DNA of 64,000 nucleotides, taken from NCBI GenBank assembly GCA_017407285.1, contig JAFQWW010000015.1:1881-65880 (forward strand). Reading direction: 5' to 3'. Positions 1,377 through 56,206 of the stretch are shown here, in pieces (positions within the stretch are counted from its first letter, which is position 1; each line of letters starts with the position of its first letter). The stretch comes from Clostridia bacterium. Lineage in GTDB: Bacteria; Bacillota; Clostridia; Christensenellales; RUG350. The translations under genes and the position numbers were made by a program. The notes beneath the pieces are model-generated. The model made no database searches. It saw only the letters and a list, made by a program, of their open reading frames with translations, and had not been told where the DNA came from.

Positions 1377-2946
1377 AGTGGTTTAATTTATTTATTATCT
1401 CTTCTGCGACTCTCACACCGTCTACAGCCGAACTCGTTATTCCACCTGCGTATCCTGCGCCCTCTCCTGCTGGATAAAGGTTTTTTATATTTATCGCAGT
1501 CAAATCCTCTCGCCTTTCTATCCTAACTGGGGAACTAGATCTCGTTTCTACACCCGTCATCACGGCGTCCTCGCTTTTGAAGCCTTTCAACTTTCTATCA
1601 AAAGCTATAAGACCATTTCTTAGTCCGTCACACACAAAACTTGGTAAAACTTCGTTTAAGTTTGCGCCTTTTACTCCTCTAGAATAGGTAGGTTCAACAC
1701 GACCAAATCCACTAGACGCTCGGTTATTCAAAAAATCTCCTACGAGTTGGTACGGCGCTACGTAATCTCCTCCGCCTAAAGAGTGTGCACCACGCTCTAA
1801 TTTTCTCTGAAACTCTACCCCTGCTAAAACGTCTTTTGAGCCAAAGTCCTCTGGGCTTACGGATACTAAAAGCGCGCTATTTGCATTTTTTCCGTCACGA
1901 GCGTAATTGCTCATACCGTTAGTAACTACTCCGCCTTCTTCGCTCGCGGACGGCACGACGTAACCACCGGGACACATACAAAAGGTGTACACACCACGAC
2001 CACACTCTAATCTTTCACTGAGTTTGTACTCGCTTGCTATACCAATGTCTTTTCCAAATTGCGATCTATTGATATCAAGTTGATCGTGTTCTATTCTAAC
2101 GCCCACCGAAAAAGGCTTTGGAATCAATTCCGTTTTATCTTTCAATAATTCAAACACGTCGCGCGCACTATGTCCAGTCGCAAGAATTAGAAAATCACAC
2201 TCAATCTCTTTTTTAACTCCGCCTTGCACGTATCGTACGCTCTTAATTTCTCCGTCTTTTATAGAAAAATCGTAGACTTTTGCACCAAACTCAAAAGAAC
2301 CACCCAAGGACAAGATTTTTTCCCTTATTCCTCTTACCGTAGGTTTCAATCTATCCGTACCGATATGAGGATGCGCGTCGTACAATATAGTATCGGGCGC
2401 GCCACACTCCACGAATTTTCGAAATACGTATTCTTGTTTATCAGACTTAGTTCCAGTATTGAGTTTACCGTCCGAAAAAGCACCTGCACCGCCTTCACCA
2501 AACTGTACGTTACACTCCACGTCAAGTGCGCCACCATCAAAAAAGTTTTGAACTATTTTTGATCTATTCTCTATTTTCTCTCCTCTCTCCAACACGCTAA
2601 CCTTGACACCGCCCTCGGCCAGAACTAAGGCTGAAAATAGTCCGCAAGGTCCTGCGCCAACTACGACGACGTGCTTTTTTACCTTTTGACTGAGTTTTAT
2701 AGGGGTATACTCAACGTAATCGTAATCTTCCACCTTTTTGCGGTTATATTTTGCATCTTTGAAGAAAAGTAAAACGCTTAATACGAATTTTATATCCTCT
2801 TTCTTTCTTGCATCTAAAGATTTTTTCAAAATTTTGTACTCAAAATCACCGCGTGTAAGTGAAATCTCCGCTTTTATGCGCGATTTTAACACCTCCTCGG
2901 TATAATGAATAGGTAATTTCAAGTTTTTAAGCAGTTTTACAATCAT
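1375..2946 (-). CDS. FAD-dependent protein (COG2509-type NAD(FAD)-utilising dehydrogenase)
   Basis: Dinucleotide-binding motif VVVVGAGPCGLFSALVLAEGG, with ~520 aa architecture typical of the family. The start is moved to MIVKLL (2946) because the longer ORF overlaps the upstream gene. Confidence 0.8.
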   Translation of the reverse strand: MIVKLLKNLKLPIHYTEEVLKSRIKAEISLTRGDFEYKILKKSLDARKKEDIKFVLSVLLFFKDAKYNRKKVEDYDYVEYTPIKLSQKVKKHVVVVGAGPCGLFSALVLAEGGVKVSVLERGEKIENRSKIVQNFFDGGALDVECNVQFGEGGAGAFSDGKLNTGTKSDKQEYVFRKFVECGAPDTILYDAHPHIGTDRLKPTVRGIREKILSLGGSFEFGAKVYDFSIKDGEIKSVRYVQGGVKKEIECDFLILATGHSARDVFELLKDKTELIPKPFSVGVRIEHDQLDINRSQFGKDIGIASEYKLSERLECGRGVYTFCMCPGGYVVPSASEEGGVVTNGMSNYARDGKNANSALLVSVSPEDFGSKDVLAGVEFQRKLERGAHSLGGGDYVAPYQLVGDFLNNRASSGFGRVEPTYSRGVKGANLNEVLPSFVCDGLRNGLIAFDRKLKGFKSEDAVMTGVETRSSSPVRIERREDLTAINIKNLYPAGEGAGYAGGITSSAVDGVRVAEEIINKLNH

Positions 2947-4067
2947 ATTTTTTGGTTTATATCTTGACTTGCAACTAAAGCGGACAAAAACGCCCAATGC
3001 AAATTATATCCTCCACACAATCCGTCTTGATCTAAAACCTCGCCACAAAGATATAATCCGTCGTAAGTTTTGCTCTCTAAACTAGGTTTAACCTCGTCCA
3101 AGCGAACTCCACCCACCGTAATTTGTGCGTTATCGTCTAAAAGACCTAACACGTTTAGTTTAATAGACCTCAGATTTTTCACTATTTCTTGAGCGTTAGT
3201 GAAATCATCCAACACGGCTTGTCCAATCTTATTTGAAATTATACCGGTCAAGAGATTGTCATCTCCCCTCTTAATTCGAGTAGAGAGAACCGTCTCGACC
3301 TCTTTATCCTCTAATCCGTCTAACAAATCCAAGGTTAAAATTGCACGCTTGCATTTTTTATCCCTCAATGCTCGTGCGTACTTTAAGGATGCGTTGAATA
3401 CGGCTATACCCGATACGCCGTATTTTCTAAACAACACCTCGCCACTCTCGACGTATTCAACTTTTCCGTCTATCTCCAAACTCACTTTCGCGTGCGCTCT
3501 CACACCGTCCAAACCTTTGAGTTTATTCGTATCGGTTTTAAGCGCGCAAAGTGCGGGATAGGTATCGGTCAAGCGAAGATTCAAAGACTTTGCAATTTCT
3601 AAATTACCGCCACCGCAAGTTAACATCACCCTTTTAGAATAATATTCTCCGTCTGAGGTTAAAACCGCGTATCCGCCTTTATCTTTTTTCACTGATTTTA
3701 CGATACAATTAGTCTTAATCTCCGCCTTACGTGCTCCAAACCTCAATACGTCCAACACGGTAGACGCTTGATTGGAAAAAGGATAAACGCGACCTGCTCC
3801 CCCCTCTCTCAAAAACAACCCTTTTTCTTTCCAAAAATCTAAAAGGTTAGAAGAATATTTTTCTTGAACGGCACGGAAAAATTGGGGATCGGAGTATTCC
3901 TCCCCCGTCAAATTGGAGTTTGATAGATTACAACGACCGTTGCCCGTAACAAGTATTTTCTTACCTACTCTATCTTTGGACTCCAATAAAAGATTTTTAC
4001 CTTTAAGTTCACACGCCGACAAAAGTCCGCTTGCGCCACCGCCTATTATAATAGTATCGTACATCAT
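2943..4067 (-). CDS. HI0933/BaiN-like flavoprotein
   Basis: Contains YDTIIIGGGASGL (FAD GxGxxG) and the family signature TGNGRCNLSN. A GGGAG RBS sits just upstream of the ATG pair at 4067/4064; the exact start is ambiguous by 1-4 codons. Confidence 0.8.
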   Translation of the reverse strand: MMYDTIIIGGGASGLLSACELKGKNLLLESKDRVGKKILVTGNGRCNLSNSNLTGEEYSDPQFFRAVQEKYSSNLLDFWKEKGLFLREGGAGRVYPFSNQASTVLDVLRFGARKAEIKTNCIVKSVKKDKGGYAVLTSDGEYYSKRVMLTCGGGNLEIAKSLNLRLTDTYPALCALKTDTNKLKGLDGVRAHAKVSLEIDGKVEYVESGEVLFRKYGVSGIAVFNASLKYARALRDKKCKRAILTLDLLDGLEDKEVETVLSTRIKRGDDNLLTGIISNKIGQAVLDDFTNAQEIVKNLRSIKLNVLGLLDDNAQITVGGVRLDEVKPSLESKTYDGLYLCGEVLDQDGLCGGYNLHWAFLSALVASQDINQKI

Positions 4068-11707: not shown

Positions 11708-12526
11708 ATGAATTTCAAAATAGCGCGTTGCGAACTTCATCATTGGGAAGAACCCGTAATATCGGGAACACGTGGAAGTGGCACGGTATTTTTCTGCGGT
11801 TGCACCATGAAATGCAAGTTTTGTCAAAACTATCAAATATCAAGAAAATTCGACACGGGACTTGAATTTTCCGAGGACGAACTCATATCCCTTTTTCTCT
11901 CTTTAGAGGAGGACGGCGCGCACAATATAAACCTCGTTACCCCCGCTCAATACGCACGATCTCTCGCCCCCGTTTTGGAAAAATTCAAAAAAATTTCCTC
12001 CATTCCCGTAGTATACAACACGAACGCTTACGAGAGTGTGGAAAACCTAAAAAAACTTGACGGATTAGTAGATATCTACCTTCCCGACCTAAAGTATAGT
12101 GAGGATAAGTACTCTATCGAATTTTCCTCCGCTCCACGTTACTTTGAAATAGCAAGCAATGCAATAGAGGAAATGCGCCGTCAACAACCAAAAGATATAT
12201 ATGAGTCCGATTTGATGAAAAAGGGAATGATAGTCCGTCATCTCGTACTCCCAACTCTAACTGAGGACAGCAAAAAGGTTTTAGACTATTTGTCCACTCT
12301 AAAACCTAAGCCTATATTGAGTCTAATGGCGCAGTATTTTCCAACTGATGAGGTAAAAGACCACCCCATATTAGGTAGAAAAATCACCAAACGCGAATAC
12401 GATATCGTCTTGGACTACGCCGATATATTAGGTTTTGATGGTTTTACTCAAGATCCGTCGAGCGCAACCGAGGACTACGTCCCCGAATTTGATTTAGAAT
12501 TATTAAAAAAGCGACTAAAAAAATAA
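11708..12526 (+). CDS. Radical SAM protein, PflX-like (pyruvate formate-lyase activase homologue, COG1313)
   Basis: CGCTMKCKFCQN carries the CxxxCxxC cluster motif. 272 aa. Confidence 0.75.
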   Translation: MNFKIARCELHHWEEPVISGTRGSGTVFFCGCTMKCKFCQNYQISRKFDTGLEFSEDELISLFLSLEEDGAHNINLVTPAQYARSLAPVLEKFKKISSIPVVYNTNAYESVENLKKLDGLVDIYLPDLKYSEDKYSIEFSSAPRYFEIASNAIEEMRRQQPKDIYESDLMKKGMIVRHLVLPTLTEDSKKVLDYLSTLKPKPILSLMAQYFPTDEVKDHPILGRKITKREYDIVLDYADILGFDGFTQDPSSATEDYVPEFDLELLKKRLKK

Positions 12527-12873
12527 AAGCAACCCAAAAGGTTATACTCTTAAGGACAGTTTCAAGTTCAGAAGATATAATATCTACAGACAGGAAGAGG
12601 ACAGAGAATGTTTTTACACTCTCTGTCCTCTTTTCCTGACAAGCACTGCATTTGTGGACGCAAATACTATTTTTAGTTATGAGTTATGAAGTTCGCTCAC
12701 GCTCACCGTTATAAGTTTGCTTCGCAAACGTTATGATATAATTGCCTTGTTACTTCAAGCTGTGCCGAAGGCACATCATAACTTGGCGTAGCCAATCATA
12801 ACTCTAAACTCGCCACAGGCGATTATAACTGCGTAGTGTCCTTAAGGGCACTACGCTAAAAGGTTGCTTTTTT
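12525..12873. repeat. Structured hairpin-array element inside a split terminator (candidate MITE/REP-like element or novel sRNA)
   Basis: Outer complementary ends are AAAAGCAACC (12525-12534) and GGTTGCTTTT (12862-12871). AAAAGGTT is duplicated at 12536-12543 and 12858-12865. An inner inverted pair is CTTAAGGACA (12549-12558) / TGTCCTTAAG (12837-12846). Inside are seven GTTATGA/TCATAAC-type heptamers, five perfect GC-rich hairpins and a 17-bp hairpin at 12591-12638. There is no credible ORF. Confidence 0.55.
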
Positions 12874-12885
12874 GCTAAATTTATC

Positions 12886-13887
12886 TTATTTGTTTTCCGC
12901 CTCTCTTGCTAGCCCTGCGATGATTTTACCTCTTAAATTGTCCTTTATAGCAGTAGGCAAAAATGCAATGTTTAGAGCGTTTAGATAACATTTAACCTTT
13001 TCTTCTACGGTTAAACCTACGCTTTCTTTCAAAAACTCAAATTCTCGTCTAATATTCGTACTAGACACCACCGTGCTATCCGTATTAACGCACACGAGTA
13101 TTCCACGGCGCAAATATTCGCGTAGTGGGTAATCTTTCATCTCATCTACCGCGCCCGTTTGGAAATTGCTAGTCGGGCACATCTCAACGCCTATGCCTTT
13201 TTCCAAAACGATATTCATCAATCTCTCGCTCTCCACCAAATGCACGCCGTGACCTATACGTCTAGCGCCGAGTTTTATAGCGGCCTCTACTTGTTCTGCG
13301 CCACCTCTCTCTCCTGCGTGTATAGTTATAGGGAGTTTTAATTCACGAGCGTACGAGAAAAGGTCTTTGTACTTATCGTACACGAATCCGTCCTCGTTTC
13401 CTGCAAGGTCTAGAGCGCAAACCCCTCGACCTAAATATTTTTTGGCGCACGTGACCGTTTCTCTATTCAAATCTTCTACGCCGTCTATTCTCATACAACA
13501 GAGTATAAGTTGGGCAACGAAATTTTCCGTGATAGCCTTCTTTAATCCCGAAATTGCGGACACTACCACCTCTTCCACGCTCAAACCTTTTCTTGTATGA
13601 AGCAAGGGCGCAAAACGAATTTCGGCGTATAGCATACCGGACTTTGAAAGTCTTTTAACCATAAGCTCAACCGCTTTTTCCACGCTTTCCTTGCTCTGCA
13701 TCACGGACAAAGGCAAATCAAAATAGGTCAAATAATGTGTAAGCGTCCTATTATCTCCGTGAAATGAAAGATAATTTTTGAGTTCCTCTTTATCCGTCGT
13801 AGGCAACTCAACTTTATCGATATCAGCCAATACTAAAATATCATCGGGGGTAAGTGAACCGTCCAAATGTAAGTGCAAATCTATCAT
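12886..13887 (-). CDS. add: Adenosine deaminase
   Basis: MIDLHLHLDGSL N-terminus, a TIHAGE metal-binding motif, and 333 aa. Confidence 0.9.
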   Translation of the reverse strand: MIDLHLHLDGSLTPDDILVLADIDKVELPTTDKEELKNYLSFHGDNRTLTHYLTYFDLPLSVMQSKESVEKAVELMVKRLSKSGMLYAEIRFAPLLHTRKGLSVEEVVVSAISGLKKAITENFVAQLILCCMRIDGVEDLNRETVTCAKKYLGRGVCALDLAGNEDGFVYDKYKDLFSYARELKLPITIHAGERGGAEQVEAAIKLGARRIGHGVHLVESERLMNIVLEKGIGVEMCPTSNFQTGAVDEMKDYPLREYLRRGILVCVNTDSTVVSSTNIRREFEFLKESVGLTVEEKVKCYLNALNIAFLPTAIKDNLRGKIIAGLAREAENK

Positions 13888-18555: not shown

Positions 18556-19209
18556 ATGAAATTTAATTTTATTGATAAGTCCAAAACTAAATCTTTAGAC
18601 AACGTTATGATAGATAAAAATTCCGTGGTGCTACTCTCCACGGATTTTTTGCCTACTATAGATCTAGACGACGAATTGACTGGTGTAACCAACTTTATAA
18701 AATCGCTATGCGTTAAAAGTCGAGATTTTTCATGCACCATATTGGGTGGCACGACACTACTTTGCAAAAACAAAAAATATTGGGGAACGCTCGTTGTAGA
18801 TCAAGGTAAATTCTTGGGCATATCCGATATGACGCACCCGATGAACGAGGACTACGACAAAAGCGGAATTTTGAGGGTTTTCGACACGAGTCGAGGTAGA
18901 TTAGGGGTAGTCAGTGGCGACGATATATGTTTTTTTGAAATCTCAAGAATGATGAAACTGTGGGAATGTGACGTGTTAATCTTTTCACTAAACAAAAAGG
19001 TTAGCCGTAAATACAAAGTCCTTTCCGAAGCCCAAGCCATATCCAACGGAGTTAGTTGTATCCTTTTTTCCTCCTCCGCGCACGCGTATTACACCAAGAA
19101 AAACTTCAAAAGCAAGAATATTTTGGACGTTGAGGTAAAAAATAACGATATTTATATAGAAAAAAGACGACCTGAGATATACTCCGAGATCGTCAAAAAG
19201 CCTTTTTAG
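18556..19209 (+). CDS. Hypothetical protein, possibly a degenerate carbon-nitrogen-hydrolase-like fold
   Basis: 217 aa with a GGAGG RBS. The segment GRLGVVSGDDICFFEISRMMKLWECDVLI resembles the nitrilase-superfamily Cys strand, but the Glu and Lys motifs are not evident. Confidence 0.3.
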   Translation: MKFNFIDKSKTKSLDNVMIDKNSVVLLSTDFLPTIDLDDELTGVTNFIKSLCVKSRDFSCTILGGTTLLCKNKKYWGTLVVDQGKFLGISDMTHPMNEDYDKSGILRVFDTSRGRLGVVSGDDICFFEISRMMKLWECDVLIFSLNKKVSRKYKVLSEAQAISNGVSCILFSSSAHAYYTKKNFKSKNILDVEVKNNDIYIEKRRPEIYSEIVKKPF

Positions 19210-21345: not shown

Positions 21346-21366
21346 TAAAATATAATATTGTAAACG

Positions 21367-21395
21367 AAAAACCGCACTAATTAGTGCGGTTTTTG
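21367..21395. terminator. Bidirectional rho-independent terminator
   Basis: AACCGCACTAA/TTAGTGCGGTT palindrome (21370-21391) flanked by an A-run and a T-run, between convergent genes. Confidence 0.8.
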
Positions 21396-21405
21396 CTTTT
21401 CGAAA

Positions 21406-37195: not shown

Positions 37196-38824
37196 CTAAA
37201 TTACGAGCATTTTATTGATGAGAGCGCCTTTCAATCCCAAGATCTCTATCTTCCAAACACCGTCCCAAGACAACATCTTCTTGTAACTTTCGTCCTTAAA
37301 TACCGAGGTTGCAAGAAGTACTCTTTGCCAACCTTCAGCACCTGATAGAGCGACCTCAGTCGTATAGGTTTTGCCACCGATCATATAAAGTTTTACGACC
37401 AAGTTTCTCTCGTCCATACAGTAGTACTCAATTTGCAAACTTTCCGCCGTCTTGAAATCAACGATGGTTTCGGGATTTTTAACGTACGCCAAGCCTTCTA
37501 ACAAACTCGTTGCGCCCTTTAATCCTACTGCGCCCTCTTCTACCGTCACTGCATCGTCCGGCATAACGTTACTGATCGACACGGGCAACAATTCGTTGTT
37601 ATCCAAAGCGCTATCGTACAATACCTTAGTACGACGTTTTTCCAAACATTTAATACCAATAGTTGCAGGCACTACTACCTTACTTGACGAACATACCGAA
37701 TATTTGCCGTAACTTACGCGACCGAATATTCTCAATATCTCGTCGGGCACGCTCAAATCGATTTTTGCGGTATAGACACCGTTTTTCTTGGTACAATCGA
37801 CCTTTTTCCAAAGTCTTTTTTCTGCTTCACTACCGTATGCGTACCATACCTCGGCGTGTTTTGCGTTCTCTACCAAAACTTTTGCGCACAACTCACCTTC
37901 GTTTGCAACTACGTCTAACACGGGAGTCTCTGCAAATTTCTCGCCCTCGAACACCTTGTCCAAGAAGGTATAAAAGGCTTTCATCTGTCTATTAGACAAA
38001 CCGTATTCGTAACCAAACGCAAAGTCGGTGTAAAAATCTTCCTTATTTTTAACGTTTTCTGCAACCTTTAAGAGAGTGTCAAAAGAATCGTCCACCTTGT
38101 TGGTTGCACCTATATGAAGGAAGGGAATATTGACGTAAGAGGCGTAACTTCTCATATCCACGCCCGATACCCAACAATCTCTCTCTTCAGGATCACCGTC
38201 ACGGTACTCAAGGTTGTATCCAAATATCGTGCACGCACCCTTCAATCTCGTATCCATAGCGGCTACTTGCCAAGTTAGTGCGCAACCCTCTCCCTCGCCT
38301 ATCATAACGATTTTATCACTATCAACGTACTCTAAGGTTGAGATAAGAGTAATAGTTCTTCTTGCAATAACGGTCCAATTATACCAAGTCGTGTGATGAG
38401 CGGAAGGTTCGGCGTGATAAAAAGCCTCCCCTGCCGTCTCAACGTTACAATAAGACAATTCTTGAGGATACAAGGTGTATCTGAGTTTTCCATCCACTTT
38501 TCCTTCGTAATCAAAGGTTGCAAGCACGTATCCCTCGTCTAAAACGGACTTGAAAAGCGATAAATCCGGTTCCTTTTTCAAACAAGGCATAGCTACGAGC
38601 AAAGTAGGTTTTTTACCCTTTGCTTTCGTGCTTCTGCAAGTGCGAACCAACACGCGGACCTTTTTCTCTCCTACGCTTTTTGCCGTAAAATAGATGGTTT
38701 CATAGGTCAAATCACCTTCGACCTTGGTGCGGATACGCTCCTCCTCAAGAGGTTCTGCCACGGGATCGAAATTTTTCCAAACTTCAACGGGTGTCATAAA
38801 TTTGTAAATCTTTTCGCTTTCCAT
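37196..38824 (-). CDS. Acetyl-xylan-esterase-like alpha/beta-hydrolase-fold protein lacking the nucleophile serine, plus a C-terminal beta-rich domain
   Basis: 542 aa. The N-terminal region resembles AXE1/CE7 esterases (WKNFDPVAEPLEEE...KKPTLLVAMP...GYVLATFDYEG). The nucleophile-elbow position reads MIGEGEGCAL instead of GxSxG. Confidence 0.45.
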   Translation of the reverse strand: MESEKIYKFMTPVEVWKNFDPVAEPLEEERIRTKVEGDLTYETIYFTAKSVGEKKVRVLVRTCRSTKAKGKKPTLLVAMPCLKKEPDLSLFKSVLDEGYVLATFDYEGKVDGKLRYTLYPQELSYCNVETAGEAFYHAEPSAHHTTWYNWTVIARRTITLISTLEYVDSDKIVMIGEGEGCALTWQVAAMDTRLKGACTIFGYNLEYRDGDPEERDCWVSGVDMRSYASYVNIPFLHIGATNKVDDSFDTLLKVAENVKNKEDFYTDFAFGYEYGLSNRQMKAFYTFLDKVFEGEKFAETPVLDVVANEGELCAKVLVENAKHAEVWYAYGSEAEKRLWKKVDCTKKNGVYTAKIDLSVPDEILRIFGRVSYGKYSVCSSSKVVVPATIGIKCLEKRRTKVLYDSALDNNELLPVSISNVMPDDAVTVEEGAVGLKGATSLLEGLAYVKNPETIVDFKTAESLQIEYYCMDERNLVVKLYMIGGKTYTTEVALSGAEGWQRVLLATSVFKDESYKKMLSWDGVWKIEILGLKGALINKMLVI

Positions 38825-53897: not shown

Positions 53898-54836
53898 ATG
53901 AAACATCTAACTCGCATCGTACTTTGTTTAGTACTTGCAATTTCTATGCTCGCTATGTGCGCATGTGGCGGAGACAACACCTTTGAAGGCAATTTCTCTA
54001 AGGAAGCAACTGAGGCTGACCTCACCGCTTTTGTAGAAGGCGTTGACACTAATAAGCTCGTAGCAGATCAAAATAACTTAGGCGCAGAATTGTCCGTAAA
54101 CCTTGACGTTATCAATAACACTTCGTTCGGCGTATACTCTGTTAACACCTCCGGTAATATCAATGCTAGCGCTAAACTTGCTTTCTCTGCACCCGCAGAA
54201 GGCGCAGAAATGCCCAACATTAAAGCTGAAATTACCTTCGGAATGGACGCAGAGTCCAAAGCTCAAGCACAAGGTCAATCTCAAACTGCAAAAGAAGACC
54301 TTTCTGCTAACGTATTCTTTGATAACACCGGATTGTACTTGAAAGCAACCATGAATTCCAACAAAACCGGCAAAGACGTTAAGAACGAAATTAAAGGTAA
54401 ACTTGATATGGAAACCATCATGGGTATGGTAAGTGGCATGATGCCTATGGCAGCTGGAGAAGGATCTGAAATGGGTGGTACCATAAATCTTGGCACACTC
54501 CTTGCTGGGCTCAAAGAACTAGGCGCTAAAATCTATATTGACTCCTCTGACGGATACAAAGTTAAGGTTTCTATGAGCGCTGATGCTGTTAAAGAAATTG
54601 TCGACAACCCCGCTCTTAACGTTAACTTGTTTGACTTCTTCCTCACCATCAATAAAGAAGGTCGCTTGGTAGGTCTCAAATTGAGTTTGGATATCGGTAC
54701 CACCTCGTCCAATCAAACTGTTGGAGTGAAAGGTGATCTCGTTTTGAAGATTAACAACGTTTCCATCAACACTCCTTCCGATCTCGCATCTTACGAAGAT
54801 TTGGATATGAGCGAACTTGGCGGACTCCTTGGCTAA
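53898..54836 (+). CDS. Lipoprotein of unknown function
   Basis: Signal peptide plus a Cys-containing lipobox region (LAISMLAMCACGG). 312 aa. Ala/Asn/Gly/Lys-rich mature protein with no recognisable enzymatic motif. Confidence 0.6.
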   Translation: MKHLTRIVLCLVLAISMLAMCACGGDNTFEGNFSKEATEADLTAFVEGVDTNKLVADQNNLGAELSVNLDVINNTSFGVYSVNTSGNINASAKLAFSAPAEGAEMPNIKAEITFGMDAESKAQAQGQSQTAKEDLSANVFFDNTGLYLKATMNSNKTGKDVKNEIKGKLDMETIMGMVSGMMPMAAGEGSEMGGTINLGTLLAGLKELGAKIYIDSSDGYKVKVSMSADAVKEIVDNPALNVNLFDFFLTINKEGRLVGLKLSLDIGTTSSNQTVGVKGDLVLKINNVSINTPSDLASYEDLDMSELGGLLG

Positions 54837-54857
54837 TTAAAATCAATTCTTAACAAC

Positions 54858-54891
54858 AAAAAAATGCTCGGCACACGCCGAGCATTTTTTA
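54858..54891. terminator. Bidirectional rho-independent terminator
   Basis: ATGCTCGGC-ACAC-GCCGAGCAT (54864-54885) flanked by an A-run and a T-run, between convergent genes. Confidence 0.85.
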
Positions 54892-54905
54892 TTGTCGTTA
54901 ATTTT

Positions 54906-56201
54906 TTACATAGTGAAATAGGTTTTTACCGTTACGCTATTTTGCATTCCATTCTCATCTACTATATCGTACGCGCCTTCTATCTCGAATAAAAGCGCCT
55001 CGTCATATTCATACGGCATGGTAAATTCTATACTCAAATACTCGTCCATATTAACGATATTGATATCAGTTACCATTACCTCAGTACCGTCCGTTTTATA
55101 AACGCAGAACGGATACGGGGATAGTAGATTGAATTCTCCGTTTTCCAATTCTAATTGAATCTTAACGCTCTTATCCTCTACCGTTATAGCAAAATCAATC
55201 TTAGGTACGCCAAGTAGTGCAGACGAGGTAAATTCTACACCCTCTACGTTACTATATTCCGAGAATTCGATATAACCTATACTATCGTCAACGGTCAAAT
55301 ACGTATACGGGAAAGATATGTGTAACGCTATCATAGTATCGCTTACGTAATCAAGTTCTTCTACGACTGCATAATCTTCAAACGCGCCACTCAAAGTAAT
55401 ATCAGCCACGCTAATATCGGAATTAAAATGCAAATTGCTTGCCTCTACGTACACGGTATCAGTCAACGCAAAGGTATCTACCGTCGCGTTCAATACCGTT
55501 GCGCCACGATAAGCGGTAGTAATTGCAGTGCTAAGGTTTTTGTTATAGGTAGTAGCGCTACTTAAGATCTCAACGTAAGCGTCGCTTGCCACGCTTAACT
55601 CACCAGACAAAGTCAACACTGCGTTTTGAGAGAGTTCCACGCCTCCCTCGTCTTCGTAGTAATCAGTGGTTACGGAGGTAATAGTTAAATCCTCTGCTAC
55701 ACCGGACAATACGAAATCATTAACGCTCAACTCTTTATTGAAGCACGCGGAGTTCAAGGACAATTCCACGGTGTGAGTGGTGTCGTTTGTGTATAAAATG
55801 GAGGAGGTGTTTGCATACGCTTCCGCTATAAAAACTTTAACGTCTACGCTTTGTCCTTTAACGATACCCTCGCCCTTAACTTCACCAAAATCCCCACTGT
55901 TTAGCGCGCCTGATAGGCTAAACACAACGGAATAATCGTCCGATAAATACACGCCTTCTATAGTCATTCCTTCAAACGCACCGCCAAGGGTGTATTTGCT
56001 CAAGTCGTCAAAATTCTCTTCCAACTCGTATCCGTCCATCACGGCTATAGAAAAACTACCGTAGTTTCCGTAACCTGCGTTATAATAATCGCGACAATAC
56101 GCACATGCGGGATCTTCGACCTCTTCATTGGGATTACAAGCCGTCAACAAACTCAACGCCAATATAACTACCATTAAAAATATAAAATATCTTTTTTTCA
56201 T
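54906..56201 (-). CDS. Lipoprotein of unknown function with an internal repeated LSG-motif module
   Basis: The start MKKRYFIFLMVVILALSLLTAC gives a signal peptide and lipobox. The motif [VIL]x[LF][ST]LSG[AEV] recurs four times (FSLSGAL, FVLSGVA, LTLSGEL, ITLSGAF). Confidence 0.55.
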   Translation of the reverse strand: MKKRYFIFLMVVILALSLLTACNPNEEVEDPACAYCRDYYNAGYGNYGSFSIAVMDGYELEENFDDLSKYTLGGAFEGMTIEGVYLSDDYSVVFSLSGALNSGDFGEVKGEGIVKGQSVDVKVFIAEAYANTSSILYTNDTTHTVELSLNSACFNKELSVNDFVLSGVAEDLTITSVTTDYYEDEGGVELSQNAVLTLSGELSVASDAYVEILSSATTYNKNLSTAITTAYRGATVLNATVDTFALTDTVYVEASNLHFNSDISVADITLSGAFEDYAVVEELDYVSDTMIALHISFPYTYLTVDDSIGYIEFSEYSNVEGVEFTSSALLGVPKIDFAITVEDKSVKIQLELENGEFNLLSPYPFCVYKTDGTEVMVTDINIVNMDEYLSIEFTMPYEYDEALLFEIEGAYDIVDENGMQNSVTVKTYFTM

Positions 56202-56206
56202 ATTGA

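Follow-up and report, generated by a model that had tools for sequence, protein, structure and literature searches.

In the 64,000 nt stretch of the Clostridia bacterium contig analysed here (hereafter the window), the segment at nt 12535–12861 probably belongs, as one copy, to a family of mobile elements that are non-coding and non-autonomous and insert at the apex of intrinsic-terminator hairpins in uncultured gut-type Clostridia. It lies between two convergent genes, rs (radical SAM, 11708–12526, plus strand) and add (12886–13887, minus strand), in a gap of 359 nt. The unusual length of this gap had been pointed out in an earlier note made from the sequence alone, which put the other convergent gaps at about 30–70 bp with a single hairpin in each. 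They measure 60–69 nt, and a hairpin is present in two of the three: gaps 21346–21405 (AAAAACCGCAC-TAATTA-GTGCGGTTTTT) and 54837–54905 have one clear bidirectional terminator apiece, while no obvious hairpin was found in gap 61703–61764. No open reading frame (ORF) contained entirely in the rs–add gap reaches 40 aa, in agreement with the note, and the element is single-copy within the window.

The sequences bordering the element are complementary at 10/10 positions (12525–12534 and 12862–12871), the left one overlapping the stop codon of rs (12524–12526). The proposal that joining these arms would recreate a bidirectional terminator was borne out at the orthologous site of a relative. The locus was found by exact-protein look-ups in five other metagenome samples. 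Strain variants (L001–L004 and L085) carry the element at 100% identity, and the next relatives have rs proteins that are 67–74% identical. In one of these, L086 (74% identical flanking protein), rs and add are again convergent but only 34 nt apart, and the gap holds an intact terminator, AAAAAAGCAACC-TTTC-GGTTGCTTTTT. Its stem is the same as the two outer arms in the window, closed by a 4 nt loop, which identifies the window element as an insertion into a terminator. Two others, L005 and L006, have different plain terminators at this site, and no homolog of the element is present in any of these three more distant relatives. A separate change is seen in L087–L089 (rs protein 73% identical), where a 448 aa leucine-rich-repeat (LRR_5) gene at approximately nt 1850–3200 lies between rs and add, so this intergenic site has been remodelled more than once.

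Copies at other loci were found by scanning metagenomes with the 26 nt palindrome of the right end, which returned five contigs (L153–L157) with flanks unrelated to rs and add. An open frame crosses the conserved left part of the element on the minus strand, and its translation was therefore used as a query against a protein collection; this gave five spurious 'proteins' and contigs L158–L162. A profile search of 1.84 billion representative proteins retrieved 36 spurious ORFs, which cover the left part of the element, at E-values up to 0.001, and L167 is a further full copy. Nineteen ORF tails were readable. Beyond the inverted repeat they are mostly different, indicating that the copies come from different loci, and 11 of the 19 carry an FF signature, which points to an A-run just upstream of the element. 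The search for further copies with different flanks, suggested in the earlier note, thus produced about ten copies with unrelated flanks in addition to the 36 representative spurious ORFs. The other full-length copies are ~315–470 nt long, and homologous copies are 75–90% identical over their alignable parts, at unrelated loci in other organisms. Their flanks range from ~40% to 54% G+C, so that several organisms carry the family. Most additional copies sit on short metagenome contigs. The right palindrome is identical in L153–L157 because it was the search pattern, and its invariance is partly a matter of ascertainment; it is also present in L160, and nearly identical in both elements of L158 (L158a and L158b), which were all found independently of that pattern.

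Neither blastn nor nhmmer found a further copy when all copies were compared with 1.3 Mb of Clostridia and viral loci, and three family members had no counterpart among plasmids and phages in distant-mode blastn. Scans of viral contigs returned nothing for the pattern of paired ends, for the 20-mer of the right end or for the left-module pattern, and a two-heptamer pattern gave 61 matches, all of them in unrelated tandem repeats or coding sequence. In the public collections, at least 36 representative 'proteins' of 50–155 aa (P0121–P0125 and P0149–P0180) are translations of the non-coding element, with the conserved peptides FSVLFLSVG and KTVLKST; P0152, P0156 and P0172 are long repeat proteins and probably false matches.

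That there is no element at all, only palindromic drift or expansion of a long spacer, or a lineage-specific structured 3′ untranslated region, is barely credible. The sequence is indeed single-copy in the window and is missing at this site from the closest species-level relatives, but homologous copies occur at unrelated loci in other organisms, and the orthologous site of L086 holds an intact terminator with the same stem.

The point of insertion is most clearly defined in L157, where the element lies between a membrane-protein gene and a PC4-like gene. In L163–L166, which encode a membrane protein 92% identical to that of L157, the same two genes are 68 nt apart and free of the element. The empty site reads CAAAAAGGTGGAGC-CTCA-GGCGCCACCTTTTTTATATTG (core GGTGGAGC-CTCA-GGCGCCACC; GGAGC-CTCA-GGCGCC) and the occupied site CAAAAAGGTGGAGC-(ATAAGCCGCGTATTCTTAAGG...CACTACGCATA)-GGCGCCACCTTTTTTATATTG (core GGTGGAGC-(ATAAGCC...CGCATA)-GGCGCCACC), with otherwise almost identical flanks. 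The element is therefore placed exactly between the stem arms, and the loop CTC(A) has been lost rather than duplicated. In all three copies with both flanks readable, these flanks are the two arms of a bidirectional terminator, and a fourth, truncated copy (L155) adjoins one. Wherever both sides are readable, the flanking ORFs are convergent. The host bases to the left of the element are stem arms that differ between sites (GCAACC, GAAGTC, GGTGGAGC, GCACTGC and GCGAGCAAG). The flanks outside the window are as follows.

L157, both flanks: AAAAAGGTGGAGC ... GGCGCCACCTTTTTT.
L160 (left) with L153 (right): GAAGTC ... GACTTC, then CTTTTT.
L155: 5′-truncated, just after the intact terminator CCCCTGTGG-CTACA-CCACAGGGG (3′ part also given as CCACAGGGGATTTTT), and followed by a 24 nt repeat of the terminator 3′ half.
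L154, L156 and L158b, right flank only: a G+C-rich 6–10-mer, then a T-run.
L159, L161, L167 and L153 (left), left flank only: an A-run, then a 6–9 nt arm.

The left flank of L153 (nt 1–270) is G+C-rich and the right flank (600–1132) A+T-rich. As its right flank pairs with the left flank of L160, and its own left flank comes from another locus, L153 is probably a chimeric assembly.

The earlier note had likened the octamer AAAAGGTT, found at both junctions of the window copy, to a target-site duplication. This reading was rejected. The left occurrence consists of element-borne AAAAGG plus TT, and the right one of element-borne AAAA plus GGTT from the host stem, as confirmed by L086. The junctions of other copies and the L157 empty site indicate that the repeat is mostly made of A-rich element ends, completed by chance. 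The segments preceding the left inverted repeat are listed below.

Window: AAAAGGTTA.
L153: AAAAGGTGC.
L160: AAAAGGGCT.
L158b: TAAAGGGAC.
L167: AAAGGGAAC.
L161: ATAAGGCGAC.
L157: ATAAGCCGC.

An A-rich left segment is found at eight other junctions (including those of L153, L157, L158b, L159, L160, L161 and L167), and matching termini occur at different loci (AAAGGGAC/AAAGGGAAC, AAAAGGTGC/AAAAGGGCT and ATAAGGCGAC/ATAAGCCGC). Since the segment is homologous between loci, its A-rich bases belong to the element and are not derived from the target. At the other end, TAAAA, TAAA, TAAT, ATA or TA follows the right palindrome in all other copies with a readable right junction. No fixed-length duplication of target bases was found at the one precise pair of empty and occupied sites.

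These junctions also bear on whether the family is an ordinary MITE (a miniature transposable element with inverted repeats), that is, an internally deleted derivative of a DDE-type insertion sequence (IS) that duplicates 5–8 bp of the terminator loop, the duplications having decayed in older copies. Small size, absence of coding sequence, imperfect inverted ends and many dispersed loci would all suit a MITE, as would the direct repeats AAAAGG(TT) in the window, AAAAG in L160/L153 and ATAAG/ATAGG in L157. ISs of five families, including DDE types, target the axis of repetitive extragenic palindromic (REP) sequences and leave repeats of 3–6 bp that are sometimes imperfect (PMC1525189). However, the CTCA loop of the L157 empty site holds none of the repeated bases, and the left 'repeat' travels with the element, being homologous between copies at different loci. 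All left junctions are A-rich on the same strand, which insertion in random orientation would not yield, the inverted repeats lie short of the ends, and searches of the window, plasmids, phages and viral contigs revealed no parent IS. An ordinary MITE is therefore rather unlikely. The first hypothesis of the earlier note, a MITE, palindrome-associated transposable element (PATE) or REP-like element that targets terminator loops, is upheld by the intact site of L086, the dispersed copies beside terminator arms, the precise empty site of L157 and the conservation of structure over sequence across the family; the inverted ends are subterminal and imperfect.

Several points weigh against a terminator-apex mobile family that inserts without target duplication. 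No enzyme, circle or excision event was seen, and mobility is for that reason inferred from distribution only. The perfect 8 nt direct repeat of the window copy, and the 5 nt repeat of L160/L153, could be true target duplications; the case for their absence comes from a single empty site, in relatives whose flanking protein is 92% identical, and the loop of L163–L166 might have changed independently. Several contigs are short, L153 is probably chimeric, the invariance of the right-end palindrome stems partly from its use as a search pattern, and only one copy lies within 64 kb. Finally, L155, which is 5′-truncated and carries a 24 nt repeat, does not fit a simple recombinase model, nor any other model considered.

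The truncated copy in L155 (nt 1040–1320) starts at the exact left edge of the right module described below, and its direct repeat, ACACCACAGGGGATTTTTGCATAA, includes the 3′ stem arm and the T-run. It leaves a little room for a retro-mobilised element resembling a short interspersed nuclear element, whose RNA, bearing an internal promoter as well as a conserved hairpin at its 3′ end, would undergo reverse transcription where terminator hairpins are nicked. A 5′ truncation with the 3′ end kept, a 24 nt repeat of the target, direct repeats whose length varies between copies, and a 3′ hairpin that is the most conserved part would be in keeping with this. Yet only one copy is truncated, the window has no reverse transcriptase, the structure shows no strand bias, and the inverted ends together with an A-tract shared at a tandem junction point to DNA recombination, making retro-mobilisation very unlikely.

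The tandem junction is found in L158 (reverse complement), where two elements of different subfamilies, a GCGATAT type (~1–311) and a TCGATAT type (318–781), are arranged head to tail and share a single TAAAGG. Evidently, occupied terminators can be hit again or elements can recombine. The second element has extra long hairpins, e.g., GTTGCTGATGGCA...TGCCATCAGCAA.

The features of the window copy, whose boundaries are accurate to ~1 nt, are given below in order.

12525–12534, plus strand: A-run and 5′ stem arm of the host terminator, AAAAGCAACC; perfect complement of 12862–12871, and the same arm as in the intact L086 terminator.
12535–12861, plus strand: inserted element, 327 nt, 40% G+C; homology to copies at other loci begins at 12535/12536 and stops at ~12860.
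12536–12544, plus strand: A-rich left terminus, AAAAGGTTA; family consensus A-W-A-A-G-G-N-N-N.
12542–12559, plus strand: imperfect inverted repeat of the left terminus, TTATACTCTTAAGGACAG; alignable with the reverse-complemented right end.
12553–12581, plus strand: promoter-like AGGACA-17 nt-TATAAT, a sequence prediction.
12591–12638, plus strand: long hairpin H_L, then terminator-like UCUUUUCC; three base pairs show compensatory double changes across copies.
12636–12649, plus strand: unpaired segment with the highest conservation, CTGACAAGCACTGC (most copies have TTGACAAGCACTGC); columns AAGCACTG do not vary in any of the 9 aligned copies.
12650–12674, plus strand: hairpin H2 (weak in the window copy) and T-run TATTTTT; a 9 bp hairpin with compensating changes in L157 and L158a/b.
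12676–12736, plus strand: forward heptamers GTTATGA, GTTATGA, GTTATAA and GTTATGA at 12676, 12683, 12708 and 12730, with hairpin 12715–12729 among them.
12734–12747, plus strand: extended −10-like TGATATAAT, starting at 12734; overlaps the 5′ half (12737–12747) of a long-range pairing.
12762–12829, plus strand: reverse heptamers, two TCATAAC and one TTATAAC, at 12776, 12796 and 12823, with hairpins 12762–12774, 12783–12795 and 12810–12822.
12831–12856, no strand assigned: 26 nt right-end palindrome, GCGTAGTGTCC-TTAA-GGGCACTACGC; contains the right inverted repeat.
12857–12861, plus strand: A-rich right terminus TAAAA; equivalents follow the palindrome in other copies.
12862–12873, plus strand: 3′ stem arm and T-run of the host terminator, GGTTGCTTTTTT; complement of the left arm, and seen joined to it in L086.

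All of the repeats listed in the earlier note are present, i.e., the outer arms, the inner inverted pair (CTTAAGGACA at 12549–12558 and TGTCCTTAAG at 12837–12846), the heptamers, the four small hairpins and the 26 nt palindrome. The extended −10 sequence TGATATAAT is likewise present, but at 12734–12742 and not, as given there, at 12733–12741. The right-end palindrome has a 12 + TA + 12 layout, and the long-range pairing joins 12737–12747 to 12817–12827, one G-T pair included. The predicted fold is far more stable than expected (z-score −10.4 on the plus strand and −9.8 on the minus strand), with none of 100 shuffles equally stable. The heptamer or its complement occurs seven times in the element against 0.17 expected from shuffles, and three of the five occurrences of GTTATGA in the window fall inside it.

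Across the family, the ends are imperfect inverted repeats of ~16–20 nt around CCTTAAGG / CTTAAGGACA. The left end reads (G)CGTAC-T-CTTAAGGACAG and the right end TGTCCTTAAGGGCACTACGC, in short GCGTA..CCTTAAGGACA; they lie 9–10 nt from the left end and 3–5 nt from the right end of the element. The family also has a left module (window 12545–12674) and a right module (12675–12830). In the left module, AGGACA-17-TATAGT is found in L153 and L158b; an equivalent is absent from L157 and deleted in L162. A conserved TTGACA was considered as a −35 box and rejected, as inspection by eye revealed no −10 sequence at 16–18 nt in any copy. L158a has an unrelated hairpin sequence at the position of H_L, and H2 with its T-run is flagged as terminator-like on the plus strand of the element in L157 and L158a.

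The right module consists of two to four forward heptamers followed by two to four reverse heptamers, some of them partial or degenerate, separated by hairpins of 4–13 bp with unrelated sequences. There are 6–8 heptamers per copy (<0.2 expected). Three versions occur: GTTATGA in the window, L153, L155, L159 and L160; TCGATAT in L157, L158b and L167; and GCGATAT in L156 and L158a. The change between subfamilies always affects both sides, the reverse copies matching the forward ones. In seven other copies the final forward heptamer is followed by a stretch of 10–12 nt whose perfect complement is located close to the final reverse heptamer, and this stretch exists in four sequence versions (TATGATCGCC(T), GATATAAATCCG, GATATAAATCCC and GATATAGATCC); no perfect complement is present in L155. 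The extended −10-like sequence TGATAT(A/G)A(T/A) is kept in the five copies that could be aligned there. In the predicted folds of L157, L158a/b and L156 the heptamers are nested as a rod with hairpin branches, and a further z-score within the family is −8.7. The view that structure is conserved and sequence is not, originally drawn from the window copy, thus holds for the family as a whole. The single-stranded UCAUAAC motifs envisaged in the same note are not supported in this way. The heptamers are mutually complementary and paired in the predicted folds; they are probably either paired with each other or protein sites.

Two contigs show further features close to the element. L162 (reverse complement, 40–561), which carries a fuller left inverted repeat (GCGCAGTGCCCTTAAGGACAG), has the left end and an H_L identical to the window hairpin, but they are followed by an interior of quite another kind. 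Inverted repeats of the form GTCATCCTGAGCG.../...CGCTCAGGATGAC are abundant in it, and an apparent ribosome-binding site and ATG stand at the contig edge. L162 may represent a cargo-bearing relative, or else hint at what an autonomous form looks like. In L159 and L161 (both reverse complement), two or three repeats of ~100 nt lie upstream of the element, each with a tRNA-like 3′ end, GGTTCGAATCCCTCCCTCTGCGCCA. One of the units contains GCGTAGTG, and none gave an Rfam match at the gathering score.

Complementarity is clearly maintained across the family, but both strands fold equally well and G-U pairs make up ~6% on either strand, so that RNA and DNA cannot be told apart by folding energy or pair type. 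The data fit single-stranded or cruciform DNA, RNA, or double-stranded protein sites co-evolving with a cognate protein. That all helices of an element share one sequence would be strange in an RNA and is more readily understood of repeated binding sites, while the position-specific hairpins are what one would sooner expect of a folded strand. On the strand that shows the heptamer as TCATAAC, many of the small hairpins (12762–12822 and equivalents in other copies) have C-GNA-G triloops (GAA, GTA and GCA) at their tips. In DNA mini-hairpins such loops have an unusual stability, which hints weakly that DNA in single-stranded form is relevant.

The element could also be a mobile small RNA (sRNA) gene. 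Its payload would be one or two sRNAs, spread as a selfish module by an IS enzyme as ssr9 is with ISPpu9: one of ~85 nt, which would start from the left promoter-like site, take in H_L and the invariant UUGACAAGCACUGC and reach as far as H2 and its U-run, and/or one of ~125 nt, from TGATATAAT to the host T-run. Promoter-like sites in the window, L153 and L158b argue for such transcripts, as do the extended −10-like sequence kept in five aligned copies and the terminator-like H2 with T-run on the plus strand of L157 and L158a. An invariant unpaired 8–14-mer between two covarying hairpins is a typical layout for an sRNA seed, and there is a precedent in ssr9, which moves alone as a circle into REP palindromes (PMC12288879). 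Against this, there is no strand asymmetry, G-U pairs being equally frequent on either strand, the −10 region lies within the covarying long-range pairing, and the left promoter is not kept in L157 and deleted in L162. Rfam gave no matches at the gathering score in the window and nine other copies, and only microRNA-type noise at E-values up to 10 on the element region. An sRNA gene as the primary identity is a possibility, although a doubtful one, and the sRNA or protein sponge put forward as the second hypothesis of the earlier note is likewise no more than possible.

For the mobile terminator-apex family itself, the enzyme would be encoded elsewhere and act in trans; no transposase, recombinase or reverse transcriptase was found within the 64 kb window. 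The enzyme would recognise the palindromic ends together with a hairpin or palindromic target, a combination that suggests a site- or structure-specific recombinase (IS110/IS1111-like, tyrosine or serine, or HUH) and not a classic DDE enzyme with a fixed duplication. In a circle or tandem, the ends would read ...CACTACGC-TAAAAGG-(N)GCGTAC..., i.e., two inverted arms around an A-rich spacer. This is the layout of a recombination core site, and the terminator has the same layout, suggesting that the recombinase brings together a donor site that is palindromic and a target that is a palindrome or hairpin. As the left junction is always A-rich on the plus strand of the element, insertion would be oriented. 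The ends are predicted to pair with each other, so that the terminator hairpin would be extended and not destroyed, its split arms still pairing, and H_L and H2 could stop transcripts from the upstream gene; with paired arms and terminator-like hairpins of its own, an insertion would do little harm to the flanking genes. A bolder and on balance unlikely version of this scheme is that an enzyme reading DNA shape opens a terminator hairpin, extruded or single-stranded, at its apex and splices in a self-folding element without target duplication, the element possibly carrying a selfish sRNA gene as well.

Elsewhere in the window, large ORFs of 312, 435, 518, 939, 542 and 217 aa, located at 53898–60786, 37196–38824 and 18556–19209, have no Pfam family (E up to 1e-10; 1e-5 for the 217 aa ORF). 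Their surroundings are otherwise housekeeping in nature (dnaE, uvrC, whiA, hprK, murB and a shikimate operon).

Small non-coding mobile elements of uncultured gut Clostridia are almost uncharted. No earlier description of this family was found, and a literature search using the end sequences as words returned only unrelated primers. The family combines three uncommon traits: choice of a terminator apex of any sequence, replacement of the loop (at one precise empty site), and complementary heptamers that change in step between subfamilies. It also has practical consequences. Metagenome assemblies break at the element, several copies of which lie where contigs end, and one contig appears chimeric. 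Dozens of spurious 'proteins' have entered public protein collections through it, and it alters the 3′ ends of genes in a manner that annotation pipelines ignore. If recombination is indeed structure-specific, it would widen the known ways in which mobile DNA finds safe landing sites, with insertions sparing coding sequence and, perhaps, termination. An enzyme recognising shape would amount to a new way for bacterial mobile DNA to choose its targets, and would lend itself naturally as a tool for placing DNA at the tips of hairpins.

Among known systems, group IIC introns also use the stem-loops of intrinsic terminators as an insertion landmark (PMC1702495). These introns are ribozymes, with six conserved domains and in most cases a gene for a reverse transcriptase, and their insertion point is downstream of the hairpin, whereas here the insertion is inside the loop; an intron of this group was rejected on that ground and for want of an Rfam match even at E-values up to 10. 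REP sequences and bacterial interspersed mosaic elements (BIMEs), and the PATEs derived from IS200/IS605, resemble the family in having hairpin modules beside short conserved motifs and, maybe, in single-stranded DNA chemistry. Both were set aside: REP/BIME units are 20–40 nt, share one palindrome per class with a GTAG-like head and occur in hundreds of copies, in contrast to a unit of ~330 nt with internal hairpins that all differ, and an IS200/IS605 PATE requires a fixed 4–5 nt target 5′ of its left end and lacks inverted ends, whereas the left flanks here differ and inverted ends are present. The consensus of integron attC sites is GTTRRRY. GTTATGA does not fit it, and the other subfamilies use TCGATAT or GCGATAT, so attC sites were rejected as well.

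MITEs such as Correia, RUP/BOX/SPRITE, ERIC and bcr1 (PMC3184786, PMC10969869) are similarly small and non-coding, with inverted ends, intergenic dispersal, often near gene ends, and stable folds. Classic MITEs have a target duplication of fixed length and a recognisable parent IS, and their interiors are remnants of IS ends; in the present family the single precise empty site shows no duplication, the repeats are set back from the ends, and the interior has an architecture that is conserved and covaries.

The closest parallels are ISs that strike the axis of extragenic palindromes, namely IS1397/ISKpn1 (IS3 family), ISRm22 (IS4), which inserts at the palindrome axis (PMC1525189), and ISPpu9, ISPpu10, ISPa11 and IS621 (IS110). 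Like the present family, they use a fixed point of an intergenic hairpin palindrome, but their targets are species-specific REPs of fixed sequence, while the stems described here differ and have in common only the A-run/stem/loop/stem/T-run architecture. They also encode a transposase, and the window element encodes nothing. Measured against an IS110/IS1111-type module, which inserts site-specifically into a palindromic target and leaves no duplication, the picture is mixed: the target is a palindrome apex and no duplication is seen at one site, but the stems differ in sequence, unlike those of REPs or attC sites. No DEDD transposase was found within the 64 kb, and a comparison of interior k-mers with the rebuilt target and the circle junction, made for a guide resembling a bridge RNA, gave only chance 7–8-mers. 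Closest of all in logic is ssr9, a module of the IS110-family element ISPpu9 (A′-B′ boxes), which is short, non-coding and bounded by IS ends, circularises by itself and occurs alone in palindromic targets; an inverted repeat in one of its ends resembles the target palindrome, and the target is not duplicated in the classic way (PMC12288879). The recombination point of ISPpu9 is a fixed AG dinucleotide within a fixed REP sequence, whereas the targets of the present family share an architecture and not a sequence.

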